DNA of 27,548 nucleotides from Gammaproteobacteria bacterium (GCA_027067235.1 JALXFQ010000067.1:1-27548); one strand, 5' to 3'; numbered from the stretch's first letter, positions 11,201 through 25,866 are shown. A program made the numbers and translations. Notes: a model not told the origin generated them from the letters alone.

Positions 11201-14200
11201 CGGTTCATCCCCACAGGCGTGGGGAACGCTCGATCTGGTGTTTTACAGCAAATTCGCGCAGCGGTTCATCCCCACAGGCGTGGGGAACGCGCGTCCGCGC
11301 TGCGCTGGTCGCGATATTTGCGCGGTTCATCCCCACAGGCGTGGGGAACGCCATGCGACCATAGGTGGCGAGCTGGATCGTCTCGGTTCATCCCCACAGG
11401 CGTGGGGAACGCCAGTTCGTCCGCTTCGGCGCGGATGCTCCCACCGGTTCATCCCCACAGGCGTGGGGAACGCATCACCGTACCAGATGCCAGAACCTTG
11501 ACCGGCGGTTCATCCCCACAGGCGTGGGGAACGCCGAGGGGTTCGACGGCGACTTTTTGCAGGAATCGGTTCATCCCCACAGGCGTGGGGAACGCTTGTT
11601 GTTAATCTGGAAATAGAAGGCGCTGAACGGTTCATCCCCACAGGCGTGGGGAACGCGCCGCGATAGTGACAAGCTCGGGATAAACCATCGGTTCATCCCC
11701 ACAGGCGTGGGGAACGCGGCTGTCTGGTACTGATGCAATAGAAGCATAACGGTTCATCCCCACAGGCGTGGGGAACGCCGCACGGAGAAAGGCCGACAGG
11801 CGCGACGATACGGTTCATCCCCACAGGCGTGGGGAACGCGCCAGCTGATCCGGCTGGCGTTCCGGGTGCGGCCGGTTCATCCCCACAGGCGTGGGGAACG
11901 CCTAACAACGAACCCGTTTTTTTCCAGGAATCTCGGTTCATCCCCACAGGCGTGGGGAACGCCGACGCCCGTCTGGACGCCGCCTCCGCCACCACGGTTC
12001 ATCCCCACAGGCGTGGGGAACGCAGTTTGCAAAATACGACTGGCACCGCATCCGGCGGTTCATCCCCACAGGCGTGGGGAACGCGAAAACATCGCCGAAA
12101 AGGCCATGCTGAAAGGCGGTTCATCCCCACAGGCGTGGGGAACGCTACGACAAGGCGCTGCGCAAGGTCGCCGGTCGCGGTTCATCCCCACAGGCGTGGG
12201 GAACGCACCGGGATCGAATGCCTCAACGCGATATTTACCGGTTCATCCCCACAGGCGTGGGGAACGCGAATGTCAAATATGGCCAAGTCAAATGCGTGAC
12301 GGTTCATCCCCACAGGCGTGGGGAACGCAAACAGTTCACGCGCCCACGCTGGATGCTGGACGGTTCATCCCCACAGGCGTGGGGAACGCTGCTCATCAGT
12401 GTTTTCGGAGGACTGGCGGCGCGGTTCATCCCCACAGGCGTGGGGAACGCAACACTTGTTTAATTAGTGGTTTCTTATCAATGCGGTTCATCCCCACAGG
12501 CGTGGGGAACGCTTCAAGCTTCGCCATTACCTGTCACTCCTCATCGGTTCATCCCCACAGGCGTGGGGAACGCGACATCATCATGCTTTTGCCCTGTTTC
12601 AGTATCGGTTCATCCCCACAGGCGTGGGGAACGCACGACCGAGAACTACCGTTTACGCATGGACGCCGGTTCATCCCCACAGGCGTGGGGAACGCTTTTC
12701 AGCCAGCGCCTTTTTCTCTTCCAACAGCGGTTCATCCCCACAGGCGTGGGGAACGCCTCAGCCTATCTGGGTGAATCAGTTTACTCCGCGGTTCATCCCC
12801 ACAGGCGTGGGGAACGCGACCGCGTCAACAGTCGCCAACGGAGAATTGAGGGTTCATCCCCACAGGCGTGGGGAACGCCCTTGTTTCGTTCCTGCTATTC
12901 TAGCATGTCGCGGTTCATCCCCACAGGCGTGGGGAACGCGGTAGAGACCGGGTTGCACACTGGCCTGAAACTGGTTCATCCCCACAGGCGTGGGGAACGC
13001 TAATAACCATCCTGAATGGGTGGATGCTGTTTCGGTTCATCCCCACAGGCGTGGGGAACGCAAGCCGCCGAGGACGAAAAGACGAAGGAGCTGCGGTTCA
13101 TCCCCACAGGCGTGGGGAACGCTTGGGATGACGTTCGCACCTTTGACGGACGTCCGGTTCATCCCCACAGGCGTGGGGAACGCTAATCAATCGGGGCTTT
13201 TTTTGCAACCTACGTCGGTTCATCCCCACAGGCGTGGGGAACGCCACCTGATCCCTGAGAACACGATGGACAGAATCGGTTCATCCCCACAGGCGTGGGG
13301 AACGCCTGTGCGTGTCCCGGAGGTTCCAAAGATCCCGCGGTTCATCCCCACAGGCGTGGGGAACGCGCCAACTCCATTGACCCGTCGCCTGTTTCCAACG
13401 GTTCATCCCCACAGGCGTGGGGAACGCTGATACTGTGGCTCGACGACGTGCCGCATGATCGGTTCATCCCCACAGGCGTGGGGAACGCAACCAATGATGT
13501 CTCCGGTGGTGCCAATGTTACGGTTCATCCCCACAGGCGTGGGGAACGCCTGCATTTGAGAGAGTGCCATAAGATTTTATCCGGTTCATCCCCACAGGCG
13601 TGGGGAACGCTTTGCCGCCAGCGCCTTGATGTAGTCAGACCACGGTTCATCCCCACAGGCGTGGGGAACGCTTACCGCCGCCAGAACCCTGACTACCGGA
13701 ACCCGGTTCATCCCCACAGGCGTGGGGAACGCCCCTTTTTCCATGTAAAGCGCATGCGCACTATCGGTTCATCCCCACAGGCGTGGGGAACGCGTCCTCG
13801 GCGGCTTCGGCCTGTTTTTTGATGGCGGTTCATCCCCACAGGCGTGGGGAACGCGAGGATGAGCGCTAAATACTGGCGCAAAAAATCGGTTCATCCCCAC
13901 AGGCGTGGGGAACGCGGGATATTCGCCAGATCATTTGCCGCCAGCGCCGGTTCATCCCCACAGGCGTGGGGAACGCGCGTATCGAGACCACCATGCAGGT
14001 TGACTACACCGGTTCATCCCCACAGGCGTGGGGAACGCGCTTCTCTCATCCACTGGCTGCGAGTTTTGACCGGTTCATCCCCACAGGCGTGGGGAACGCG
14101 GCATTTTTATCCTTGACAGTTATAACAATTACGGTTCATCCCCACAGGCGTGGGGAACGCTTGAGAAAACGCGCCGAGGATTGAAGCGTCTGCGGTTCAT

Positions 14201-16295
14201 CCCCACAGGCGTGGGGAACGCCCTTTCTGCCGCACGCTGCGCCTTCCGGCGCTCGGTTCATCCCCACAGGCGTGGGGAACGCGGAGTATTCCGACACCGA
14301 CCGGAACGGTAGTTCGGTTCATCCCCACAGGCGTGGGGAACGCGCAAGTACCGCAACCTGCCTGAAGATTCAATACGGTTCATCCCCACAGGCGTGGGGA
14401 ACGCATTTCATGTTGATGATGATGGCCGGGCCAAAGCGGTTCATCCCCACAGGCGTGGGGAACGCTGTTAGAGTTCGGTCAATTTGGTTGTTTTAGGCGG
14501 TTCATCCCCACAGGCGTGGGGAACGCGCGCCAGTTCTGCGCGCCGGGCCACATCGAACCGGTTCATCCCCACAGGCGTGGGGAACGCGTCGCCTTCGTAG
14601 ATCAGGCGCTTGCAGGTGGCGGTTCATCCCCACAGGCGTGGGGAACGCGCTCTTTTTCGGTTTCGAGTGAGCGGATTACCGGTTCATCCCCACAGGCGTG
14701 GGGAACGCAAAATAGATTGCCCGCGCGTCTGGTGGAATCGCGGTTCATCCCCACAGGCGTGGGGAACGCCGTTTGCTGATGGCGACAGCCAGCTGATCCG
14801 GCGGTTCATCCCCACAGGCGTGGGGAACGCATGACCATAATCATAGACATCGCGCTGGTACTGCGGTTCATCCCCACAGGCGTGGGGAACGCGGTAATGG
14901 CGAAGTTGACAGACAAGCAAAAAGCGGTTCATCCCCACAGGCGTGGGGAACGCTATTGTAAAATCAGCAAATTCAAATACACACTCGGTTCATCCCCACA
15001 GGCGTGGGGAACGCCGCAACATTTTTGTACGTTTCCGGGTATTTTACGGTTCATCCCCACAGGCGTGGGGAACGCTGCCCCGATCTCCTCAGATCAGCAA
15101 TGGCAGACGGTTCATCCCCACAGGCGTGGGGAACGCATCCTCTGCCGCTGGCGGGGATGGTTACTGATCGGTTCATCCCCACAGGCGTGGGGAACGCATG
15201 TTGATTCAATGACTTGGTTCCTATCAAGCCGGTTCATCCCCACAGGCGTGGGGAACGCATCCGCCTGACTACCGAAGGGTTTGATGGCGACGGTTCATCC
15301 CCACAGGCGTGGGGAACGCCGGCACGGATGCGGTGGCGGTGTGCGAGGAGGCGGTTCATCCCCACAGGCGTGGGGAACGCCGTCGCGCCGGTTATGTGGG
15401 CGATTCGTTCATCGGTTCATCCCCACAGGCGTGGGGAACGCATCACCGTGCCGGAGGCCAACACTTTGACCGGCGGTTCATCCCCACAGGCGTGGGGAAC
15501 GCGTACAGCAGAGGATTACGCGGACGCTGTTGAGCGGTTCATCCCCACAGGCGTGGGGAACGCACTGGAACAACCGTTGCAATTAGGGCAAAAAACGGTT
15601 CATCCCCACAGGCGTGGGGAACGCTTCGTATCGTGTCGGCCCCAGCCACGCCCTGACGGTTCATCCCCACAGGCGTGGGGAACGCCTGATTATTGACGTT
15701 GTAATATACGTCTCCTGCGGTTCATCCCCACAGGCGTGGGGAACGCGAAACCATGCAGCCGCGTCCCACGCAGCAGGCGGGTTCATCCCCACAGGCGTGG
15801 GGAACGCCCACTCCGGGACGGGCGTGTCGAGCGGATTCACGGTTCATCCCCACAGGCGTGGGGAACGCACCGGGGAACCGAGGTTGTCATCCTCGGCCAG
15901 CGGTTCATCCCCACAGGCGTGGGGAACGCGCGCACATCATCGCAGGCGCGCAGCGGCCCGACGGTTCATCCCCACAGGCGTGGGGAACGCCCGGAGACGA
16001 CGAGAATACCGCCATCGAATTCCGGTTCATCCCCACAGGCGTGGGGAACGCTCGCCAATCACCAGCCAAAAAAAGTCCCATTCCGGTTCATCCCCACAGG
16101 CGTGGGGAACGCATACTGGCCCTTGACTTCGCGCCAGACGTGGACGGTTCATCCCCACAGGCGTGGGGAACGCTGGGCCATTCCCTCCACTCCAAAGGAC
16201 ATTAACGGTTCATCCCCACAGGCGTGGGGAACGCGCGACGCTCGCGCTCTTTGTCCACTAGGCGGCCGGTTCATCCCCACAGGCGTGGGGAACGC
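11201..16295 (-). CRISPR. Type I-E CRISPR array, 84 repeats / 83 spacers
   Basis: 29-nt repeat GCGTTCCCCACGCCTGTGGGGATGAACCG (transcribed sense) with a CCCCAC/GTGGGG stem. Hand count: 78 spacers of 32 nt, four of 33, one of 31. Leader lies on the cas2 side. Spacers here are numbered S1 from the low-coordinate (oldest) end. Confidence 0.99.
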
Positions 16296-16420
16296 ACCAA
16301 TCGTAACCGATTGGTTTTACTCTGAAAATAGAGCAGAGAAAATTCTACCGATTTTTTCCGCTAAAAATCCGGCGATCTTTTCTGCTCCAAACAGTACTTT
16401 CGAATTGTAAAAGAGCGTGG
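16296..16420 (-). promoter_or_regulatory. CRISPR leader
   Basis: AT-rich gap between cas2 and the first repeat; contains AAAATCGGTAGAATTTT, resembling the GGTAGA motif of I-E leaders, about 50 nt from the repeat. Confidence 0.85.
16304..16316 (-). promoter_or_regulatory. IHF-like site in the leader
   Basis: AACCAATCGGTTA has one mismatch to WATCAANNNNTTR, at -9 to -21 from the first repeat, where IHF binds in E. coli I-E leaders. Confidence 0.6.
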
Positions 16421-17646
<1,226 letters not shown>

Positions 17647-18312: not shown

Positions 18313-18996
18313 TCAAACCCGCCTGACCAGCATCAGGCCGCAGCCGAAGGCTTTGGAACGGCCAAAGCCCAGCTTTAACGCAGCTTGATAAGCCTCTGGC
18401 TCGGTCAGGGTCAGGCTGCCCTGAATGTCCAGGCTCGCGAACTGGCGTTTGTTGGCGTCTCCGGGTTTTCTCACTTTGTGGAACTGGTGGTTGGAAACCA
18501 GACAGTCGCCCGGTTGAAAGCCTTGTTTCTCGCCCTGTCTTTCCAGCCATTTTTTGGCGGCGTCGTGATGGATGACCGAGGGTGGCGGCCAGCTTTCTCC
18601 GCTCGGGTCATTTTTGCGGTATTCGTCGATGGCCGCCTCGATGATGTCACGGCGGATGCGCCGCTTGCTGTGATCGTCGGCCTTGCGGGTGACCACGGCA
18701 TTGACGCGAAGCTGGAATTGCAGGCGGTCGCCCGCCCGCAGGCGCGGCTCGAAAGGCTTGGTTTCGACGATCAGGCTTTCGTTTCCTTCCAGAGGGCGGC
18801 GCGCCGAAAGCAAATAGTAGAACGGCGGCTCGCCAGGCTTGTCCTCGCGCCGGTAGAGAAAGTCGCGCTGTTGATCGGGCGCATTGTCGAACAGACTCCA
18901 GATCATCTGGTGTTCACGGAACAGGTCAGCGGTGACGCCTCGCCGGCACTGACGGCGAATGCCCTCCCGGGTAAAGTGGATACGACTCAGATACAT
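18313..18996 (-). CDS. cas6e: Type I-E Cas6 (Cse3/CasE)
   Basis: YLSR...EHQMIWSLF, L..GDRLQFQLRVNAV, Gly-loop GFGRSKAFGCGLMLV. ATG 18996 or GTG 18999. Confidence 0.95.
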   Translation of the reverse strand: MYLSRIHFTREGIRRQCRRGVTADLFREHQMIWSLFDNAPDQQRDFLYRREDKPGEPPFYYLLSARRPLEGNESLIVETKPFEPRLRAGDRLQFQLRVNAVVTRKADDHSKRRIRRDIIEAAIDEYRKNDPSGESWPPPSVIHHDAAKKWLERQGEKQGFQPGDCLVSNHQFHKVRKPGDANKRQFASLDIQGSLTLTEPEAYQAALKLGFGRSKAFGCGLMLVRRV

Positions 18997-19700
18997 CACT
19001 CACCTCCCAGGCGGACGAATTCTTCGCGCGGCGCAAACTGCCAGCGTTGGCGGCTCAGGGGCTGGTCATAACGTGGCGTATGGAAGTCGTGATCCATGCC
19101 AGATTTCATGTCCGCTTCCCAGTAGTAGCGCGAGGATTTTCCCAGGAGTATCGCCAGCCAGGGGGCGACGCAATAGCTGTCCAGCGCCATTCTGAGATCG
19201 TGCGCGGGAATGACCTCCGGGTTGAGCGGCAATGCGGGCGGACAGGCCTTGCGTCCAAGGTAGAGTGGAAACACCGGTTCCAGTAGGGCGTCATGCAGGC
19301 GGTCCGGGCTGTAGCGTTCGTCCCCGCTGGTGACGGCGACGATGCTTACGGCATCCTGCCGATAGCTACGGAAAGAGAGCATGGTGCCGACCTTGGGTTC
19401 GCGCAGTTCGTCGCGCCGGGTCTGCAAGTGCTGTTGTTTTTTTGCCGATGGCGGTACCTGAATGGTGTGAAAATCCCGCAGGGCCAGGCCGGGCGCGGGC
19501 AGCTTGACGCCAAAGCGGCAAGCATGGCTCAAGGCCCGGTGTTCCGCTTCTTCGTCGCGGCGGATGCCAAGGGCCGCAGCCAGCAGACCCAGCAAGGCCG
19601 AGCGGCTGGGGTGGTCGTCACTGGGGCGCTCCTGCCCCACGGCCTGCCCGCCCCAGGCGGCCAGCGGCGCGTAGAGTTGAAAAACCAGATAGTCGTCCAT
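18996..19700 (-). CDS. cas5: Type I-E Cas5 (CasD)
   Basis: YLVFQLYAPLAAWG, PSRSALLGLLAAALGIRR, LRDFHT, LYLGRKACP. Confidence 0.95.
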   Translation of the reverse strand: MDDYLVFQLYAPLAAWGGQAVGQERPSDDHPSRSALLGLLAAALGIRRDEEAEHRALSHACRFGVKLPAPGLALRDFHTIQVPPSAKKQQHLQTRRDELREPKVGTMLSFRSYRQDAVSIVAVTSGDERYSPDRLHDALLEPVFPLYLGRKACPPALPLNPEVIPAHDLRMALDSYCVAPWLAILLGKSSRYYWEADMKSGMDHDFHTPRYDQPLSRQRWQFAPREEFVRLGGE

Positions 19701-19703
19701 GAC

Positions 19704-20747
19704 TCAGCCCGCCACGAAGTCGATGATGTCTTCGAGCTTATCGCCCTCGCCGGTATGGGCGTTCATGGCGCGCCGTTCGTCAGCGCAATCGCCATACATG
19801 CGGTCGAAGTTGTCGCGCTGTGTCTCCAACGCCTGGATCGCCTGCGCCATCAGGTCGTCGCTGCCGCCCACGGGTTTCAAGAAAGCCACCGACAGACTGC
19901 GGGGTTGCTGACTGCCTTTCTCCGCCAGCAGATAGGAGGTATAGGCGCGGGAAGCGAAACTGTTCTGCTTGCCGGTGGGCGCAACCTTGGCCGCCGCCTC
20001 GGTGAGCGCGGCGATGGCTTTGTTCGCCAGGTCTTCATCCCCTTGCAGGTTCTCCACCAGCCGGTCGCGGTCGATGCAGAGGTACTGGTAAAACACGCCA
20101 GAACTGAAGCCAGCATCGCCCATGTGTCCCGCGCCGGCGTCTTCTTCATGGGTATTGAGATCATCCACGGCGGTGAAGAAGTCGTCCTCGATCTTCACCT
20201 GATTGACGGTGACGGCGTGCGCCACCTGCGCGGCGGCCTCGACGTTGAACGCCGGACTGGAGGCCAGCATGCGGCCAAACAGCGCGATATCCACGGCTTT
20301 GGGTTTTTCACGAAGCAGCGCCAGTTCTTCCTTTTCGGGTTCCCGGTTCTCCGTTGCGAGCGTATCGGCCAACGCCATGACCGCTTGCCACTCCTCGGGA
20401 GAGACATGGGCAAGTTGCTCGATCTCCAGTGGATTTTCCTTTTTGACCTTGCCAAAAACAGCAGCGATGGCGGAGGCCCATTTTTCCGCGTCCTTTTCCT
20501 TGACGCCCGCATCGACCAGCTTTTTGTGTACTTCCACGCCCAGCCGCTTGGTGCGTGTGCCTTTGAACTCGCTCAAGGCATTCTCGAAGTGCTCTGAGGT
20601 ACGCCAGGCCCGCTTGAGGCTTTGCGAGGAAACCCGCAACCGCTCCGCGCCGCCAACGATGGCAGTCTTCGGTCGACCGAGATCATCCCGGTTGAGATTG
20701 GAAGGCGGATAGGCAGTGAGCAGATGCAGTTGGATGAATTGAGTCAT
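19704..20747 (-). CDS. cas7: Type I-E Cas7 (Cse4/CasC)
   Basis: FIQLHLLTAYPPSNLNRDDLGRPKT, RVSSQSLKRAWR, DIALFGRM, DFFTAVDDL, PTGKQNSFA. Confidence 0.97.
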   Translation of the reverse strand: MTQFIQLHLLTAYPPSNLNRDDLGRPKTAIVGGAERLRVSSQSLKRAWRTSEHFENALSEFKGTRTKRLGVEVHKKLVDAGVKEKDAEKWASAIAAVFGKVKKENPLEIEQLAHVSPEEWQAVMALADTLATENREPEKEELALLREKPKAVDIALFGRMLASSPAFNVEAAAQVAHAVTVNQVKIEDDFFTAVDDLNTHEEDAGAGHMGDAGFSSGVFYQYLCIDRDRLVENLQGDEDLANKAIAALTEAAAKVAPTGKQNSFASRAYTSYLLAEKGSQQPRSLSVAFLKPVGGSDDLMAQAIQALETQRDNFDRMYGDCADERRAMNAHTGEGDKLEDIIDFVAG

Positions 20748-20750
20748 GAT

Positions 20751-21308
20751 TTAAGCTCCTTTTGAGGTCGACTTGGCATTTGCCAGACTTTGAGGTTCGT
20801 AATAGCCACGCGCCATCCGGTACTGCCATTGGCGTGTGCCCCGGTAGCTGTCGGGCCAGCGCTGCTGGGCATGCCAATGCAGAATCTCATCGGCGAGTTG
20901 TATGGGGTCTGCCGTCTTGGCCAGCTGCATGATGGCGCGGCGCATGGTCTGATAGAAATCGTTAACGCTATTCGATGCCAGCAGACGTTGAAAACGCAGT
21001 TCGCTGAACAGCGGGCTGCCGTCATTAGTTTTGGTGCCGGGTTTGGGGCGCCCCAATAGTACGGCAGTCGGCTGGTCGCTGGGGTTTTCCACCCAGGCCA
21101 ACAGGCCGGCAATGAGCGCCAACCCTTCAGCATCACCCTTGGTTTTCTGGCACAACCGGAAATAGGCCGGCTCCAACATCACGGCATCGAGCTTGTCACA
21201 ACGGCGCAGGCGGGCGCGGTCACCACGGTGATTTTCGTCATGCAGTTCACTGTGCCATTCCCGGATGGCCTGCTGACGGTCTTCGTCTTTAAGTATGATG
21301 AAACACAT
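20751..21308 (-). CDS. cse2: Type I-E small subunit Cas11 (Cse2/CasB)
   Basis: W...RGDRARLRRC, FSELRFQRLL, RRAI, W...MARGYY; lies between cse1 and cas7. Confidence 0.9.
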   Translation of the reverse strand: MCFIILKDEDRQQAIREWHSELHDENHRGDRARLRRCDKLDAVMLEPAYFRLCQKTKGDAEGLALIAGLLAWVENPSDQPTAVLLGRPKPGTKTNDGSPLFSELRFQRLLASNSVNDFYQTMRRAIMQLAKTADPIQLADEILHWHAQQRWPDSYRGTRQWQYRMARGYYEPQSLANAKSTSKGA

Positions 21309-21320
21309 AAGCTACTCCAG

Positions 21321-22898
21321 TTAAGCCGCCAGGTTTTTCAGCGCGCGGCTGCCATTGAGATAGTGATTGAGCCCGCCCTTGCCATCGCGCGCCCTGACCA
21401 CGCGCTTGAGATCGCCACCTTCGCTCAGGCTGGACAGGGCGTACTGATCGAACAGTTTCCGGGCTTCGTCTTTCAGGGTGCCGGCCCACTTTTTTAACAA
21501 CGCGTCGATGGCGTCCTCGTCATCGAGTCGGTCAACCAGTTGCTGCAGCAAGTGGTAGAACGGCGCTTCTGTGGTGGACCAGAAGTTGGCGTCGATAAAG
21601 GACATGTCTCCCTTTGCGTCCTTCGGGCGATCGAACCAAGCGCTTTTCAAGGCGGACTTGAGGGTCTTGAGCGCATCGGTGGCGGCTTCGATCATTCTCT
21701 GTGCATACTCGGCAATGTCATCCCGCTCGTCTTGATCGAGATTGAACAGCGGCATTTCGGCTTCGTACCAGCAACGCGCCTTCATATTGTCCATGTCATA
21801 GCCGAATGCCCACAGGCGGGGGGCGAAATCCAGCTCGGGCATGCGGCGCTGCCGATCGTCATAACAACGCACGACCAGCGCGGGAGACCGGGTGAGCTTG
21901 CCTTGCTGGGCGGTGACCGCCAGCCCCAGCCAGTGGCGATACCCCAGGCCGCCCGGTTGCGCCTTGATGGAAAGGGGCTCCTTGTCCGCTTCGAGAACAT
22001 AAGGGGTCAAGGGGTGCTGCCAGTGGCCCGCGTAATTGATGCCGTAGTTTTTGGTGAGGTAACGATTCACCAGGCTGGAAGCGGCTTCACCGGTGAGGTC
22101 GCAGTGCCCCTCATGGTCCAATGGCAGCAGGCGCATGCGCCGGGGCATGGACCAATACACCTGCAAGGGGTGGGCGTGTTGAGGATAAGTTTCCATCCCC
22201 TTCTTTTCGCTGGTGCGGGTTAGAGCCAACCACGGGAAGATTTTTCCAATGGCGTCATTTTCATGGTCGCCGGGCGCTTGCACCAACTCGTCGCGGGTCA
22301 ACACATTGAGCCACAGACGCCGCCACAGGCAATCGCCCTCGCCGTTCTCCGGTGGCAGCACCAGCGTGGTCAGGGGTCCGCCGCCACGCACCGAAACGCG
22401 GTGGCCCACGCCCCCGGATGGTGCATTGATCTGCAGAGTGAACAGCGCCAGGGCGGCCATCTCCGGCGATAGTTTCTCGATGCCGCCGCGCTTGATGAAA
22501 TGATCCTGGTTGTCGCGCAGGGTTTTGCCGCCCGGCGCTTCGACGAACAAAGCGGCGATTTCTTTTTCTTCGCCCTCATCCAGTGTCAGATCCTGCATGA
22601 AGGCCGGTTCGCCGATGGCCGAGAAGATTTCGAAGGCCCGTTCGTAAGGGGCGAAGGCTTGATCCAGGGTTTCCGCATCGGGCGGTTCTCGCCACCAGCG
22701 CCGCCATTCCCTGAGGTTTTCCGGTGCGAATGCGGTCTGTAGCAGACCAATGAGGAACTGGTAGAGGGCGCCGCGAAAATCGGCGCGAGGGGCTGATATA
22801 TCAACAATATCCTCGCATCCCAAGTCTGAGACAGAAACAGCCTCGTGATTTCCGTCCCGCATGGAGACGTTAATCCATTTCAGTTTCAACAGGTTCAT
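21321..22898 (-). CDS. cse1: Type I-E large subunit Cas8e (Cse1/CasA)
   Basis: MNLL..WI, RADFRGALYQFLIGLLQ, QINAPSGGVGHRVSVRGGGPLTT, HPLTPY, GYDMDNMKARCW. ATG 22898 is 9 nt after GGAG (ORF track extends to 22937). Confidence 0.95.
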   Translation of the reverse strand: MNLLKLKWINVSMRDGNHEAVSVSDLGCEDIVDISAPRADFRGALYQFLIGLLQTAFAPENLREWRRWWREPPDAETLDQAFAPYERAFEIFSAIGEPAFMQDLTLDEGEEKEIAALFVEAPGGKTLRDNQDHFIKRGGIEKLSPEMAALALFTLQINAPSGGVGHRVSVRGGGPLTTLVLPPENGEGDCLWRRLWLNVLTRDELVQAPGDHENDAIGKIFPWLALTRTSEKKGMETYPQHAHPLQVYWSMPRRMRLLPLDHEGHCDLTGEAASSLVNRYLTKNYGINYAGHWQHPLTPYVLEADKEPLSIKAQPGGLGYRHWLGLAVTAQQGKLTRSPALVVRCYDDRQRRMPELDFAPRLWAFGYDMDNMKARCWYEAEMPLFNLDQDERDDIAEYAQRMIEAATDALKTLKSALKSAWFDRPKDAKGDMSFIDANFWSTTEAPFYHLLQQLVDRLDDEDAIDALLKKWAGTLKDEARKLFDQYALSSLSEGGDLKRVVRARDGKGGLNHYLNGSRALKNLAA

Positions 22899-23017
22899 CT
22901 GCATGATCTCCGGAGGATTTGTAATCGAATTCGACATGGAACCAACGACCCAATCGAAGCATGAATCGTATAAAAATATTGCGCATCACCAGTTCTCGAT
23001 ATATCATAAATGAGAGC

Positions 23018-23047
23018 ATGATAAAGTATAAACGGTTTGTGTATCAA
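23018..23047 (-). promoter_or_regulatory. Predicted sigma70 promoter of the cse1 (Cascade) operon
   Basis: TTGATA (23047-23042), 18-nt spacer, TATCAT (23023-23018). Confidence 0.55.
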
Positions 23048-23065
23048 GCGCAGTTCGTTTATCAT
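23037..23065 (+). promoter_or_regulatory. Predicted divergent promoter of the mini-array
   Basis: TTGTGT (23037-23042), 17-nt spacer, TATCAT (23060-23065); the implied start is about 23072, the first base of the repeat. Confidence 0.5.
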
Positions 23066-23071
23066 GCTCTT

Positions 23072-23149
23072 GAGTTCCCCACACTTGTGGGGATGAACCG
23101 GTATACACGGTTTGCGGAAACTACTCCCCACATTCGTGGGGCTGTGAGA
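23072..23149 (+). CRISPR. Antisense CRISPR mini-array, CreR/CreA-like regulatory crRNA candidate
   Basis: Repeat 1 GAGTTCCCCACACTTGTGGGGATGAACCG (23072-23100, 26/29 to the main repeat); 20-nt spacer GTATACACGGTTTGCGGAAA; degenerate repeat 2 (23121-23149) keeps the stem CCCCAC-ATTC-GTGGGG. Confidence 0.85.
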
Positions 23150-23157
23150 GGGGTAAT

Positions 23158-25866
23158 TCATCTTGCCCCTCTTATTTCAAGACCTGTTTCTGGCGAATAT
23201 TGGATTTCAACTTCCAGTCCCTTATCAGCAACTCCTTTGGCGAGCCAAACCCCTTCTTGCTCTACAAGAGGCACTATCAAGCTCATATCATCGAACAGTT
23301 TTTCGCTTTCCCTCAGCTCCTCCAGCGCCTGTTGCAGCGCCGGGTCATCCACCGGAGCCAGTTCCTGAAATTGATTGGCGTTGACCCGAAGGCTGGATAA
23401 ATCCCACGAATAACGGTCTTCGCGCGCCCAGGGTTCGAGCCGGCCGTCCTGCCAGCGGGCGAGGTAGATGGTCCGGCTTTCGTCACCGAGGCGGGTGGCG
23501 ACGCGGGCTTCCTCGTCCCAGAGTGGGCCACCCCGATAGCCACCTTCGAACCGCAGGCTGGCGAACCGACCGGCATCGCGCTCGGCATGGGTCTCGCCAT
23601 CGACCTCGGTCTTGGCGTCTATCAGTCCCGCCGGGATTGGGCCTTCATCGTCATAGACCGGCTCCAGCAGATCGCGGGCATCATCGGGCATTTTCCAACC
23701 ACCTTTTTCCGCCAGCAATCCGGCGGTACGCCACAGCACCAGGGTGTCGGGATAGACGTAGTGCGCTTTCGGGAATAGCGCCTTGTACCAGTCGGCTTCG
23801 GGTTCGTCGGTGAGCTGAGGGCTGAAAACATCGAGCACCGGCATTCCCCGCTCGCCCCGCTGGTGACGATGCAGCCTGCCGGCGCGCTGGATCAGCAGAT
23901 CGATGGGGGCGAGGTCGGAGATCATGCGGTCGAAGTCGAGGTCCAACGACTGTTCGACCACCTGGGTGGCGATAAGAACCCGCCCCCGGCGCTGCTCCGG
24001 CATGGAACCCTTGCCGAAACGTTTCAGCATGTCCTGTTCGATGCGCAGCCGGTCGGTCAGCGCGTAGCGGCTGTGGAACAAGTGCAGTTTGTCGTTTTCC
24101 AGCCAGTCGCTCTCTTGCAAGGCGCGCCAGGCTTCGCGGGCGTCATGAACAGTGTTGCGAATCCAGCAGATGCACTGGCCGTCCTCCACGGCGGCGCGGA
24201 TTTCTTCGAGGAGCACTATTTCATCATGGTGCAGACGCACGCCGACTTGTCGCGCCACCGAGGGGCGGGTGGCTACGGCTTGCTCCACGATGATGTCACT
24301 CGCGTTCGCCTGGGTGAGTAGCGGATAGTCTGTCGATTCCGGGGTGGCCTGTATTCCGCCCTGAAACGCGCCAACCAGGTCGGCTCGCTGTTTGCGGGTC
24401 AGCGTGGCGGAGAGCAGGATGACGCTGCCGCCAAGGGCGGCATGAAAGCCGATCAGGCGCTTGAGGGGTTCCGATGTGTAGGCATCGTAGGCGTGCACCT
24501 CGTCAAGGATCAGCACCTTGCCGACCAAACCGAGCAGGCGCAGGGATTGATGGCGGGCGGGCATGACGGCGAGCAGAGCCTGGTCGATGGTGCCAATGCC
24601 AACATCGGCGAGCAGCGCCTTTTTGCGGTTGTCCGCCAGCCAGCGGTTGCACTGGGCGACGATGCTTTCTTCGTCGCCATAACGCGGATCCCCGGTGTGT
24701 GCGGCCAGCAGGGATTGCCGGAACGATTCGGACGAGTGCCGGGCGCTGTGACTGAGGATCAGGCTGGGTTGCGGCTCGCCCGACTGATAGAGGCCTCGAT
24801 AGACCTTGCGCATGCGGTCATACATGGCGTTGGCGGTGGCCATGGTCGGCAAGCCGATATAGATGCCCTGCCCCTGTCCCGCCGCCATCAGCTGCGCGGC
24901 GAGGATCAGCGCCGCCTCGGTCTTGCCCGCGCCGGTGGCGTCTTCCAGGATGAACAACTGCGGCTTCGCCTTGATGGACAGATCGAGGCAGGCCTGTTGC
25001 AGGGGAGTCGGCGTTTCAAGGTAGTCGAACAGATCGCGGGGTTGTTCGAGAGGGCGGACGGGGCGCGGCAGGATGCCGGCAGCCGCCACGGCTTCCCGTG
25101 CCGCAGGCAGGGCATGCTTTTCCCAATATTCGGACAGAGGCATGGGCCGGTCACAATAGCGGAAACGTTCGCTGTCGGAACCCAGCCAGTCGGCCAGCAC
25201 GGCGATGCCCGCCAGCAGCCAGCTTGCCTGACATTGGCGCTCGGAAAAGGTCGAGTCTTCGAAATGCTGCGCCAGTCGTGAAAAGTCGGGTCGGATCAAT
25301 GCCTGCCATTCCCGGCAAAACAACAAGGCAGCCTGTTTGTCGAAATCCCTGAAATGCCGCTTGATCTTTTCGTTACGGCTGGAATTGTCGGGCGGCCAGC
25401 CATGATGGCCGGTCACAGCCGCAAGCCAGTAGTTCATGCCCTCGTCGATGAAGTCCTGCACATCTTCATCTTCGGAATCGAACAGTTCATTGCGCAGGAA
25501 TTGCTGCCATAACATCCAGCCGAGCGCGTCATGACGGATGCTGTAGTTGCGCTTGCGGATTTTTTCATCGGGCCAGAACTGCTGGCGCAGATCATGACGC
25601 AATTGTTGGAAGCTCTCGGCGAACTTGCCCAAGTCGTGCAGGCCAAGCAGAAAAACGCACCAAACTTTGGCTTCTTCGGGCGCAAGTCCTGTCGCCTCGG
25701 CCAGCCGGCCCAGGAGTTCCGGGTTTTCGTCGAGCAAGACGGCCGCCACCGCCGCCACATCCAGAGAGTGATAAGCCAGCATATGACATGACTTCTCAGT
25801 CGAATCATCAGGCTCGCCAGCCTTGCCCCAATACCGATAAATCGCTTCCGCCATCCCGACCTTCAT
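23158..25866 (-). CDS. cas3: Cas3 HD nuclease-helicase
   Basis: AYHSLDV and LHDLGK (HD), TGAGKTEAA, DEVH, LSAT, ATQVVEQSLDLD, QRAGRLHRH. Start may be ATG 25854. Confidence 0.97.
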   Translation of the reverse strand: MKVGMAEAIYRYWGKAGEPDDSTEKSCHMLAYHSLDVAAVAAVLLDENPELLGRLAEATGLAPEEAKVWCVFLLGLHDLGKFAESFQQLRHDLRQQFWPDEKIRKRNYSIRHDALGWMLWQQFLRNELFDSEDEDVQDFIDEGMNYWLAAVTGHHGWPPDNSSRNEKIKRHFRDFDKQAALLFCREWQALIRPDFSRLAQHFEDSTFSERQCQASWLLAGIAVLADWLGSDSERFRYCDRPMPLSEYWEKHALPAAREAVAAAGILPRPVRPLEQPRDLFDYLETPTPLQQACLDLSIKAKPQLFILEDATGAGKTEAALILAAQLMAAGQGQGIYIGLPTMATANAMYDRMRKVYRGLYQSGEPQPSLILSHSARHSSESFRQSLLAAHTGDPRYGDEESIVAQCNRWLADNRKKALLADVGIGTIDQALLAVMPARHQSLRLLGLVGKVLILDEVHAYDAYTSEPLKRLIGFHAALGGSVILLSATLTRKQRADLVGAFQGGIQATPESTDYPLLTQANASDIIVEQAVATRPSVARQVGVRLHHDEIVLLEEIRAAVEDGQCICWIRNTVHDAREAWRALQESDWLENDKLHLFHSRYALTDRLRIEQDMLKRFGKGSMPEQRRGRVLIATQVVEQSLDLDFDRMISDLAPIDLLIQRAGRLHRHQRGERGMPVLDVFSPQLTDEPEADWYKALFPKAHYVYPDTLVLWRTAGLLAEKGGWKMPDDARDLLEPVYDDEGPIPAGLIDAKTEVDGETHAERDAGRFASLRFEGGYRGGPLWDEEARVATRLGDESRTIYLARWQDGRLEPWAREDRYSWDLSSLRVNANQFQELAPVDDPALQQALEELRESEKLFDDMSLIVPLVEQEGVWLAKGVADKGLEVEIQYSPETGLEIRGAR

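Follow-up and report, generated by a model that had tools for sequence, protein, structure and literature searches.

The window analysed here, a contig of 27,548 nucleotides from a gammaproteobacterial genome, contains a type I-E CRISPR array on the minus strand (positions 11201–16295) and an adjoining set of cas genes on the same strand. A 29-base repeat occurs 84 times in the array and alternates with 83 spacers, most of which are 32 bases long (four are 33 bases, and one is 31 bases). An A+T-rich leader of 125 bases (16296–16420, minus strand) separates the first repeat from cas2 (16421–16726, minus strand; TIGR01873 at 3e-37), which is followed by cas1 (16729–17646, minus strand; TIGR03638 at 8e-116); these are the type I-E adaptation genes. 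The interference genes cas6e, cas5e, cas7e, cse2, cse1, and cas3 occupy positions 18313–25866, also on the minus strand. Seven of the eight cas genes (cse1, cse2, cas7e, cas5e, cas6e, cas1e, and cas2e) scored above the curated cut-offs of the type I-E NCBIfam models. The score of Cas3, 508 bits, is below the cut-off of the full-length equivalog model (569), and the protein passes the models for the Cas3 helicase core and the HD domain. With the full I-E gene set beside the array, the locus is a complete CRISPR-Cas system of type I-E. The host genome is a metagenome bin of 474 contigs with 4.8% contamination, and the co-occurrence in one cell of the two spacers discussed below rests on the assembly.

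The position of the cas operon and the leader indicates that the array is transcribed on the minus strand and that new spacers enter at its high-coordinate end. Only three repeat variants were found, at 12850, 12972, and 15779, all of them at the last base in the minus-strand reading, and the remaining repeat positions are invariant across the 84 repeats. In the E. coli type I-E system, the PAM supplies the last base of the repeat (Swarts et al. 2012, PMC3338789). The orientation agrees with the position of the repeat variants and with the 5' AAG at the protospacers found for three spacers (described below). Since the array lies on the minus strand, the S-numbers assigned to the spacers in the original prediction, which are retained here, run from the trailer to the leader. 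Acquisition therefore ran in the opposite direction to that numbering: S5 (11474–11505, minus strand), the 79th spacer from the leader, is the older copy of the pair considered below, and S70 (15442–15473, minus strand), the 14th from the leader, is the newer one.

S5 and S70 are identical at 26 of 32 bases in exact register and differ at positions 9, 12, 15, 20, 21, and 24 of the plus strand. The coordinates, the sequences, and the in-register identity of the two spacers are as the original prediction gave them. Among all 3403 spacer pairs of the array, the next-best in-register identities were 21, 21, and 18, and 20 shuffles of the spacers yielded maxima of 16–18, so that the match between S5 and S70 is far above chance. 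When all spacer pairs were compared at the peptide level, S5/S70 alone exceeded the shuffled null. The repeats flanking both spacers are perfect. The neighbouring spacers, S4/S69 on one side and S6/S71 on the other, are unrelated in register, indicating that a single unit, not a duplicated block, is common to the two places. A search of the host's own genome found no self-target, no second array, and no further copy of the S5/S70 sequence.

The differences between the two spacers follow codon structure. With a spacer length of 32 bases, plus frame 1 and minus frame 1 have their wobble positions at the same bases. The original remark that five of the six differences fall at third codon positions is true for plus frame 1, in which both of the translations given with it are also correct, and, owing to this coincidence, it is true on either strand. 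In plus frame 1, two amino-acid replacements separate S5 from S70, whereas in minus frame 1 both spacers encode PVKVLASGTV over the same ten codons and all six differences are silent, including a first-position change in a leucine codon. The other four frames contain stops or five replacements. In 200,000 simulations, random sets of six substitutions were wholly silent in any open frame in only 0.18–0.24% of cases. The divergence thus arose in a coding gene, not in the array (P about 0.002). From the pattern of the substitutions, we conclude that the source is a protein-coding gene under purifying selection. Its reading direction is most probably that of the crRNA spacer; a plus-strand frame, with its two replacements, is less likely. 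The original prediction of independent acquisitions from diverged coding sequence, as opposed to duplication or decay within the array, is therefore supported by the 26/32 identity, the silent pattern, and the invariant repeats, while its choice of a plus-strand frame gives way to the wholly silent minus frame.

Captures from diverged relatives of one phage gene can be demonstrated for other spacers of the same array. S6 (11535–11566, minus strand), which adjoins S5, and S67 (15259–15290, minus strand), which lies three units from S70, overlap by 18 bases, with three differences that are all silent. The peptide of S6 read on the plus strand of the window is EGFDGDFLQE. A degenerate pattern built from the composite plus-strand peptide of S6 and S67 matched 61 IMG/VR contigs and 34 metagenome contigs (95 in total), and every match lay inside an open frame. 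The longest of these frames reach about 350 residues; most have 320–331 residues, and some are cut by the end of the contig. The one tested as a representative, L040 with 325 residues, is a major capsid protein; it matches the Gp13-like Pfam family PF20036 at 8e-122 and also phrog_247. The S6 and S67 sites in this conserved gene are 14 bases apart, and a third spacer, S46 (13977–14009, minus strand; 33 bases), targets the same capsid gene further downstream. The best matches of the spacers to the capsid contigs were 28/32 for S6, 29/32 for S67, and 32/33 for S46 (the last in one viral contig), and the ten-residue translations of the three spacers were found exactly in 66–83 contigs. In crRNA orientation, the S67 site has AAG on its 5' side in 56 homologous contigs, and so does the S46 site, likewise in 56; at the S6 site the bases in front are A-N-G, and S6 itself has AAG just before the overlap. 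The AAG PAM of a type I-E system was thus found through S67, S46, and S6, and the repeats vary only at the PAM-derived base. This array has thus demonstrably taken spacers from relatives of a single phage gene that had diverged from one another, which lends indirect support to the reading of S5/S70 and suggests that related phages were met on two occasions.

The two pairs resemble each other in arrangement and in divergence. S5 and S6 are next to each other among the old spacers, and S67 and S70, no more than three units apart, are among the newer ones; the divergence in both pairs (S5/S70 and S6/S67) is about 17–19% and purely silent. This grouping is in keeping with two related invaders met at two different times. 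As for other spacers of the array, S45 weakly resembles, in frame, the start of the large terminase gene in the capsid contigs, and S11 and S59 weakly resemble, also in frame, a 146-codon gene that lies between the capsid and tail genes of these contigs.

The original prediction had expected spacer and peptide searches to reveal two homologous genes as the targets of S5 and S70, and no target was found in any collection searched, namely the GenBank phages, the PLSDB plasmids, IMG/VR, the JGI metagenome contigs, and one genome per GTDB species. A blastn search with each spacer against the GenBank phages gave chance-level partial matches only, and with the whole array against phages and plasmids only other I-E arrays were matched. 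The wobble-degenerate pattern of the minus-frame peptide had no match in IMG/VR, the JGI metagenome contigs, or one genome per GTDB species, and a relaxed pattern without the first codon likewise gave none. Neither the frame-3 peptide pattern nor the patterns derived from three overlapping spacer pairs were found in IMG/VR. In a 400-genome sample of the same class, only matches to the repeat and two chance-level hits were obtained; among the latter, S40 matches a fumarate hydratase gene at 24/24 bases. No S5/S70 site was present, at up to three mismatches, in 38 viral records related to the capsid target, and the three candidate peptides were all absent from about 0.9 Mb of capsid-phage loci. 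The family and order of the host are represented by only two genomes in the genome collection searched, and the phages of this host are therefore probably unsampled.

Two weak leads from these searches, neither of which exceeded the controls, were discarded. In the first, 12 bases match in frame within a motif of the large terminase gene that two related proviruses carry. The second was a 23/32 in-frame match in a tail tube gene. Reversed-spacer controls reach 22/32. At the peptide level, unrelated peptides and windows scored higher than either lead.

The explanation that we favour, with a probability of roughly 80%, is that one 32-base protospacer was captured twice from diverged versions of a single coding gene carried by an invader. 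The Cas1-Cas2 integrase would have taken the same PAM-anchored 32-base protospacer on two occasions widely separated in time. The two sources would have been versions of one protein-coding invader gene that had diverged by about 19% at the DNA level, and purifying selection on this gene would account for copies that differ at silent sites only. The older copy now sits close to the trailer, and the newer one close to the leader. We infer that the source was a phage or another mobile element, that the PAM of the S5/S70 protospacer was AAG, and that the copies came from two distinct relatives, not from paralogues.

Double capture from one site has been described before. In Legionella pneumophila arrays, pairs of spacers target one protospacer, or two that overlap, in closely related foreign elements. 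The authors read these pairs as repeated invasion and suggest that acquisition of the newer spacers may have been induced by the older, imperfect ones (Rao et al. 2016, PMC5071653). The present case is similar in that a single array holds a same-site pair whose older and newer copies differ. The Legionella system is, however, of type I-C, its target LME-1 is known, and the newer spacer was shown to match better, whereas the locus described here is of type I-E, the divergence is larger (six silent differences), and the target of S5/S70 was not found in the collections searched. With respect to the machinery, the closest comparison is the E. coli type I-E system, which shares with this locus the 29-base repeat, the spacers of 32–33 bases, and the AAG PAM whose G becomes the last base of the repeat, as well as a seed at positions 1–5 and 7–8 and unpaired positions at every sixth base. 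In E. coli, mismatched targets can prime acquisition (Swarts et al. 2012, PMC3338789; Xue et al. 2015, PMC4678831). That work consists of laboratory experiments with plasmids and phages, while the present evidence is the natural record of an array; in addition, the repeat sequence is not the same, and the order of the host is represented by only two genomes in the collection searched.

The positions of the differences bear on whether one spacer could have promoted the acquisition of the other. In crRNA orientation, S5 and S70 differ at positions 9, 12, 13, 18, 21, and 24, and seed positions 1–8 are identical. Cascade leaves every sixth position unpaired (Xue et al. 2015, PMC4678831). Since the differences at 12, 18, and 24 fall on such unpaired positions, each guide would face the variant of the other with its seed fully matched, and the effective mismatches would number three, all of them distal. 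An AAG PAM would constitute a lysine codon in frame, in which case all of the unpaired sixth positions are wobble positions. The intact seed and the coincidence of the sixth positions with wobble positions make cross-recognition, and hence primed re-acquisition, plausible.

A priming step may accordingly be added to the favoured explanation: the old S5 and S6 guides would have bound a later relative imperfectly, leading to the capture of S70 and S67. We regard this addition as a tentative possibility. It is consistent with the adjacency of S5 and S6, the placement of S67 and S70 within three units, and the shared silent divergence of about 17–19% in both pairs, as well as with the intact seed and only three effective mismatches under the pairing rules (PMC4678831), and the same idea was put forward for the Legionella arrays (PMC5071653). 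On the other hand, no site for S5 and S70 was found in the capsid phage family within the 38 viral records and about 0.9 Mb of loci mentioned above, and priming in the E. coli I-E system showed no preference for sites near the primer (PMC3338789). Moreover, naive capture at a favoured AAG site would look alike and accounts for the data equally well. The more specific scenario, in which there were two encounters with related phages and the S5 and S6 guides primed the re-capture of both the same site (S70) and the overlapping capsid site (S67), is doubtful.

The spacers might instead have been derived from paralogues within one invader, or from a co-circulating population of invaders in a single infection. 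As the targets were not found, nothing in the window decides against such an origin, but S5 and S70 are 65 acquisitions apart, a purely silent divergence of 19% is typical of constrained orthologues, and S6/S67 shows the same split into old and new copies, which together make it improbable. A chimeric assembly, in which the bin merges the arrays of two strains so that the two spacers were never present in one cell, is suggested by the origin of the genome (the metagenome bin of 474 contigs with 4.8% contamination). Against this, S5 and S70 stand at separate places in a set of 83 unique spacers, all on a single 27.5-kb contig whose repeats are uniform, and an artefact of this kind seems slightly more improbable still; even a chimeric array would leave the two captures independent.

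A specific identity for the target was also considered, namely a sheath-like tail gene (DUF3383) with minus frame 3 as its reading frame. S5 matches 19/20 bases of this gene in about 48 Salmonella and Escherichia phages, which was the best partial hit, and these phages appear to be among the 355 phage records with a Gp13-like capsid gene, a correspondence that was drawn from tallies of genus and host, not from individual accessions. The match has an E-value of 3 and is thus expected by chance. Furthermore, in minus frame 3 each of the six differences hits the first or second base of a codon, five of the ten residues are altered, and the frame-3 peptide is absent from IMG/VR and related contigs. 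We therefore consider this target very unlikely. Duplication of a spacer within the array followed by mutational drift, to which the identical register and the perfect flanking repeats might point, is the least likely of all, since six changes would have had to gather in 32 bases, with the 84 repeats, each of 29 bases, left unchanged outside the PAM-derived base, non-coding drift would not be all-silent in one frame (P about 0.002), and the neighbouring spacers are not duplicated.

Same-site double capture is an already documented phenomenon (PMC5071653), found here in a standard type I-E locus, and no new mechanism is involved. The practical value is modest. The capsid-targeting spacers link a host of a poorly sampled order to a widespread phage group with a Gp13-like capsid. 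A codon pattern in the differences between spacers can show on which strand and in which frame an unseen target is read, and PVKVLASGTV offers a ten-residue tag for recognising the missing invader in future data. An AAG PAM that stands in frame as a codon would render half of the wobble-position drift, which is mostly silent, invisible to Cascade. The S5/S70 pair is a clean, small example of an array recording repeated contact with an evolving lineage of invaders, and, if the primed re-capture of S70 and S67 is true, the array would represent a natural case of 'memory refresh' by a type I-E system.

Variants of the repeat occur in the type I-E array at positions 12850, 12972, and 15779 only, and all three lie at the PAM-derived last base when the array is read on the minus strand. 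Their position implies that spacers S27, S29, and S75 (counted from the trailer) would have been captured beside a PAM base other than G. Spacer length also varies: four spacers have 33 bases (S11, S21, S46, and S60) and one, S57, has 31.

The only other genome from the genus, family, and order of the host (G001) carries two repeats and one spacer (L005, 871-960); the completeness of this assembly is only 55%, and the locus is thus seen in part. The repeats are located approximately 500 bases from dnaX, a neighbourhood shared with the array in the window, where dnaX flanks the trailer end.

S6, S67, and S46 target a phage group that occurs widely in marine, freshwater, and soil samples (loci L040, 2353-3327, L095, and L120; records G401-G404 and G433), and many of its records are classified as proviruses. 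The group possesses the Gp13-like capsid. The one relative tested (L112) also encodes a Phage_tube_2 tail tube protein. Its nearest named phages by capsid are Acinetobacter phage TCUAN1, Paracoccus phage Pkon1, and Pseudomonas phage PS-1, with a capsid protein identity of only approximately 66-71%.

S5 (11474-11505) matches 19 of 20 bases in a DUF3383 sheath-like gene of Salmonella phage S1 (L001, 1501-1520), which is probably a coincidence. The phage group carrying this gene also appears, from matching tallies of genus and host, to carry a Gp13-like capsid; two weak links, the S5 match and the capsid, lead to one phage group. A match between S40 (13611-13642) and a class I fumarate hydratase-like gene, in a genome that belongs to the host's class but is otherwise unrelated (G002; L029, 1501-1524), is identical over 24/24 bases. 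We regard this match as chance, since the similarity stops abruptly and the E value of 7e-4 applies per genome, with 400 genomes searched.

Besides S5 and S70, S40 is in register with S25 (12696-12727), and S59 (14770-14801) with S14 (12024-12055). Each pair shares 21 of 32 bases, above the shuffle maximum of 18. Because amino-acid changes arise in every frame in both pairs, these spacers may represent the same sites captured from more distant relatives.

Three pairs of spacers overlap: S40 with S45 (13916-13947), S11 (11840-11872) with S59, and S31 (13062-13093) with S43 (13794-13825). The overlap is exactly 14 identical bases in all three; in two of the pairs both spacers share a strand, and in the third they lie on opposite strands. 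The overlap with S40 reveals AAG as the PAM of S45, and that with S11 reveals CAG for S59. From how often spacers overlap, the pair counts give a rough estimate of approximately 50 kb for the effective target pool that these spacers would have sampled.
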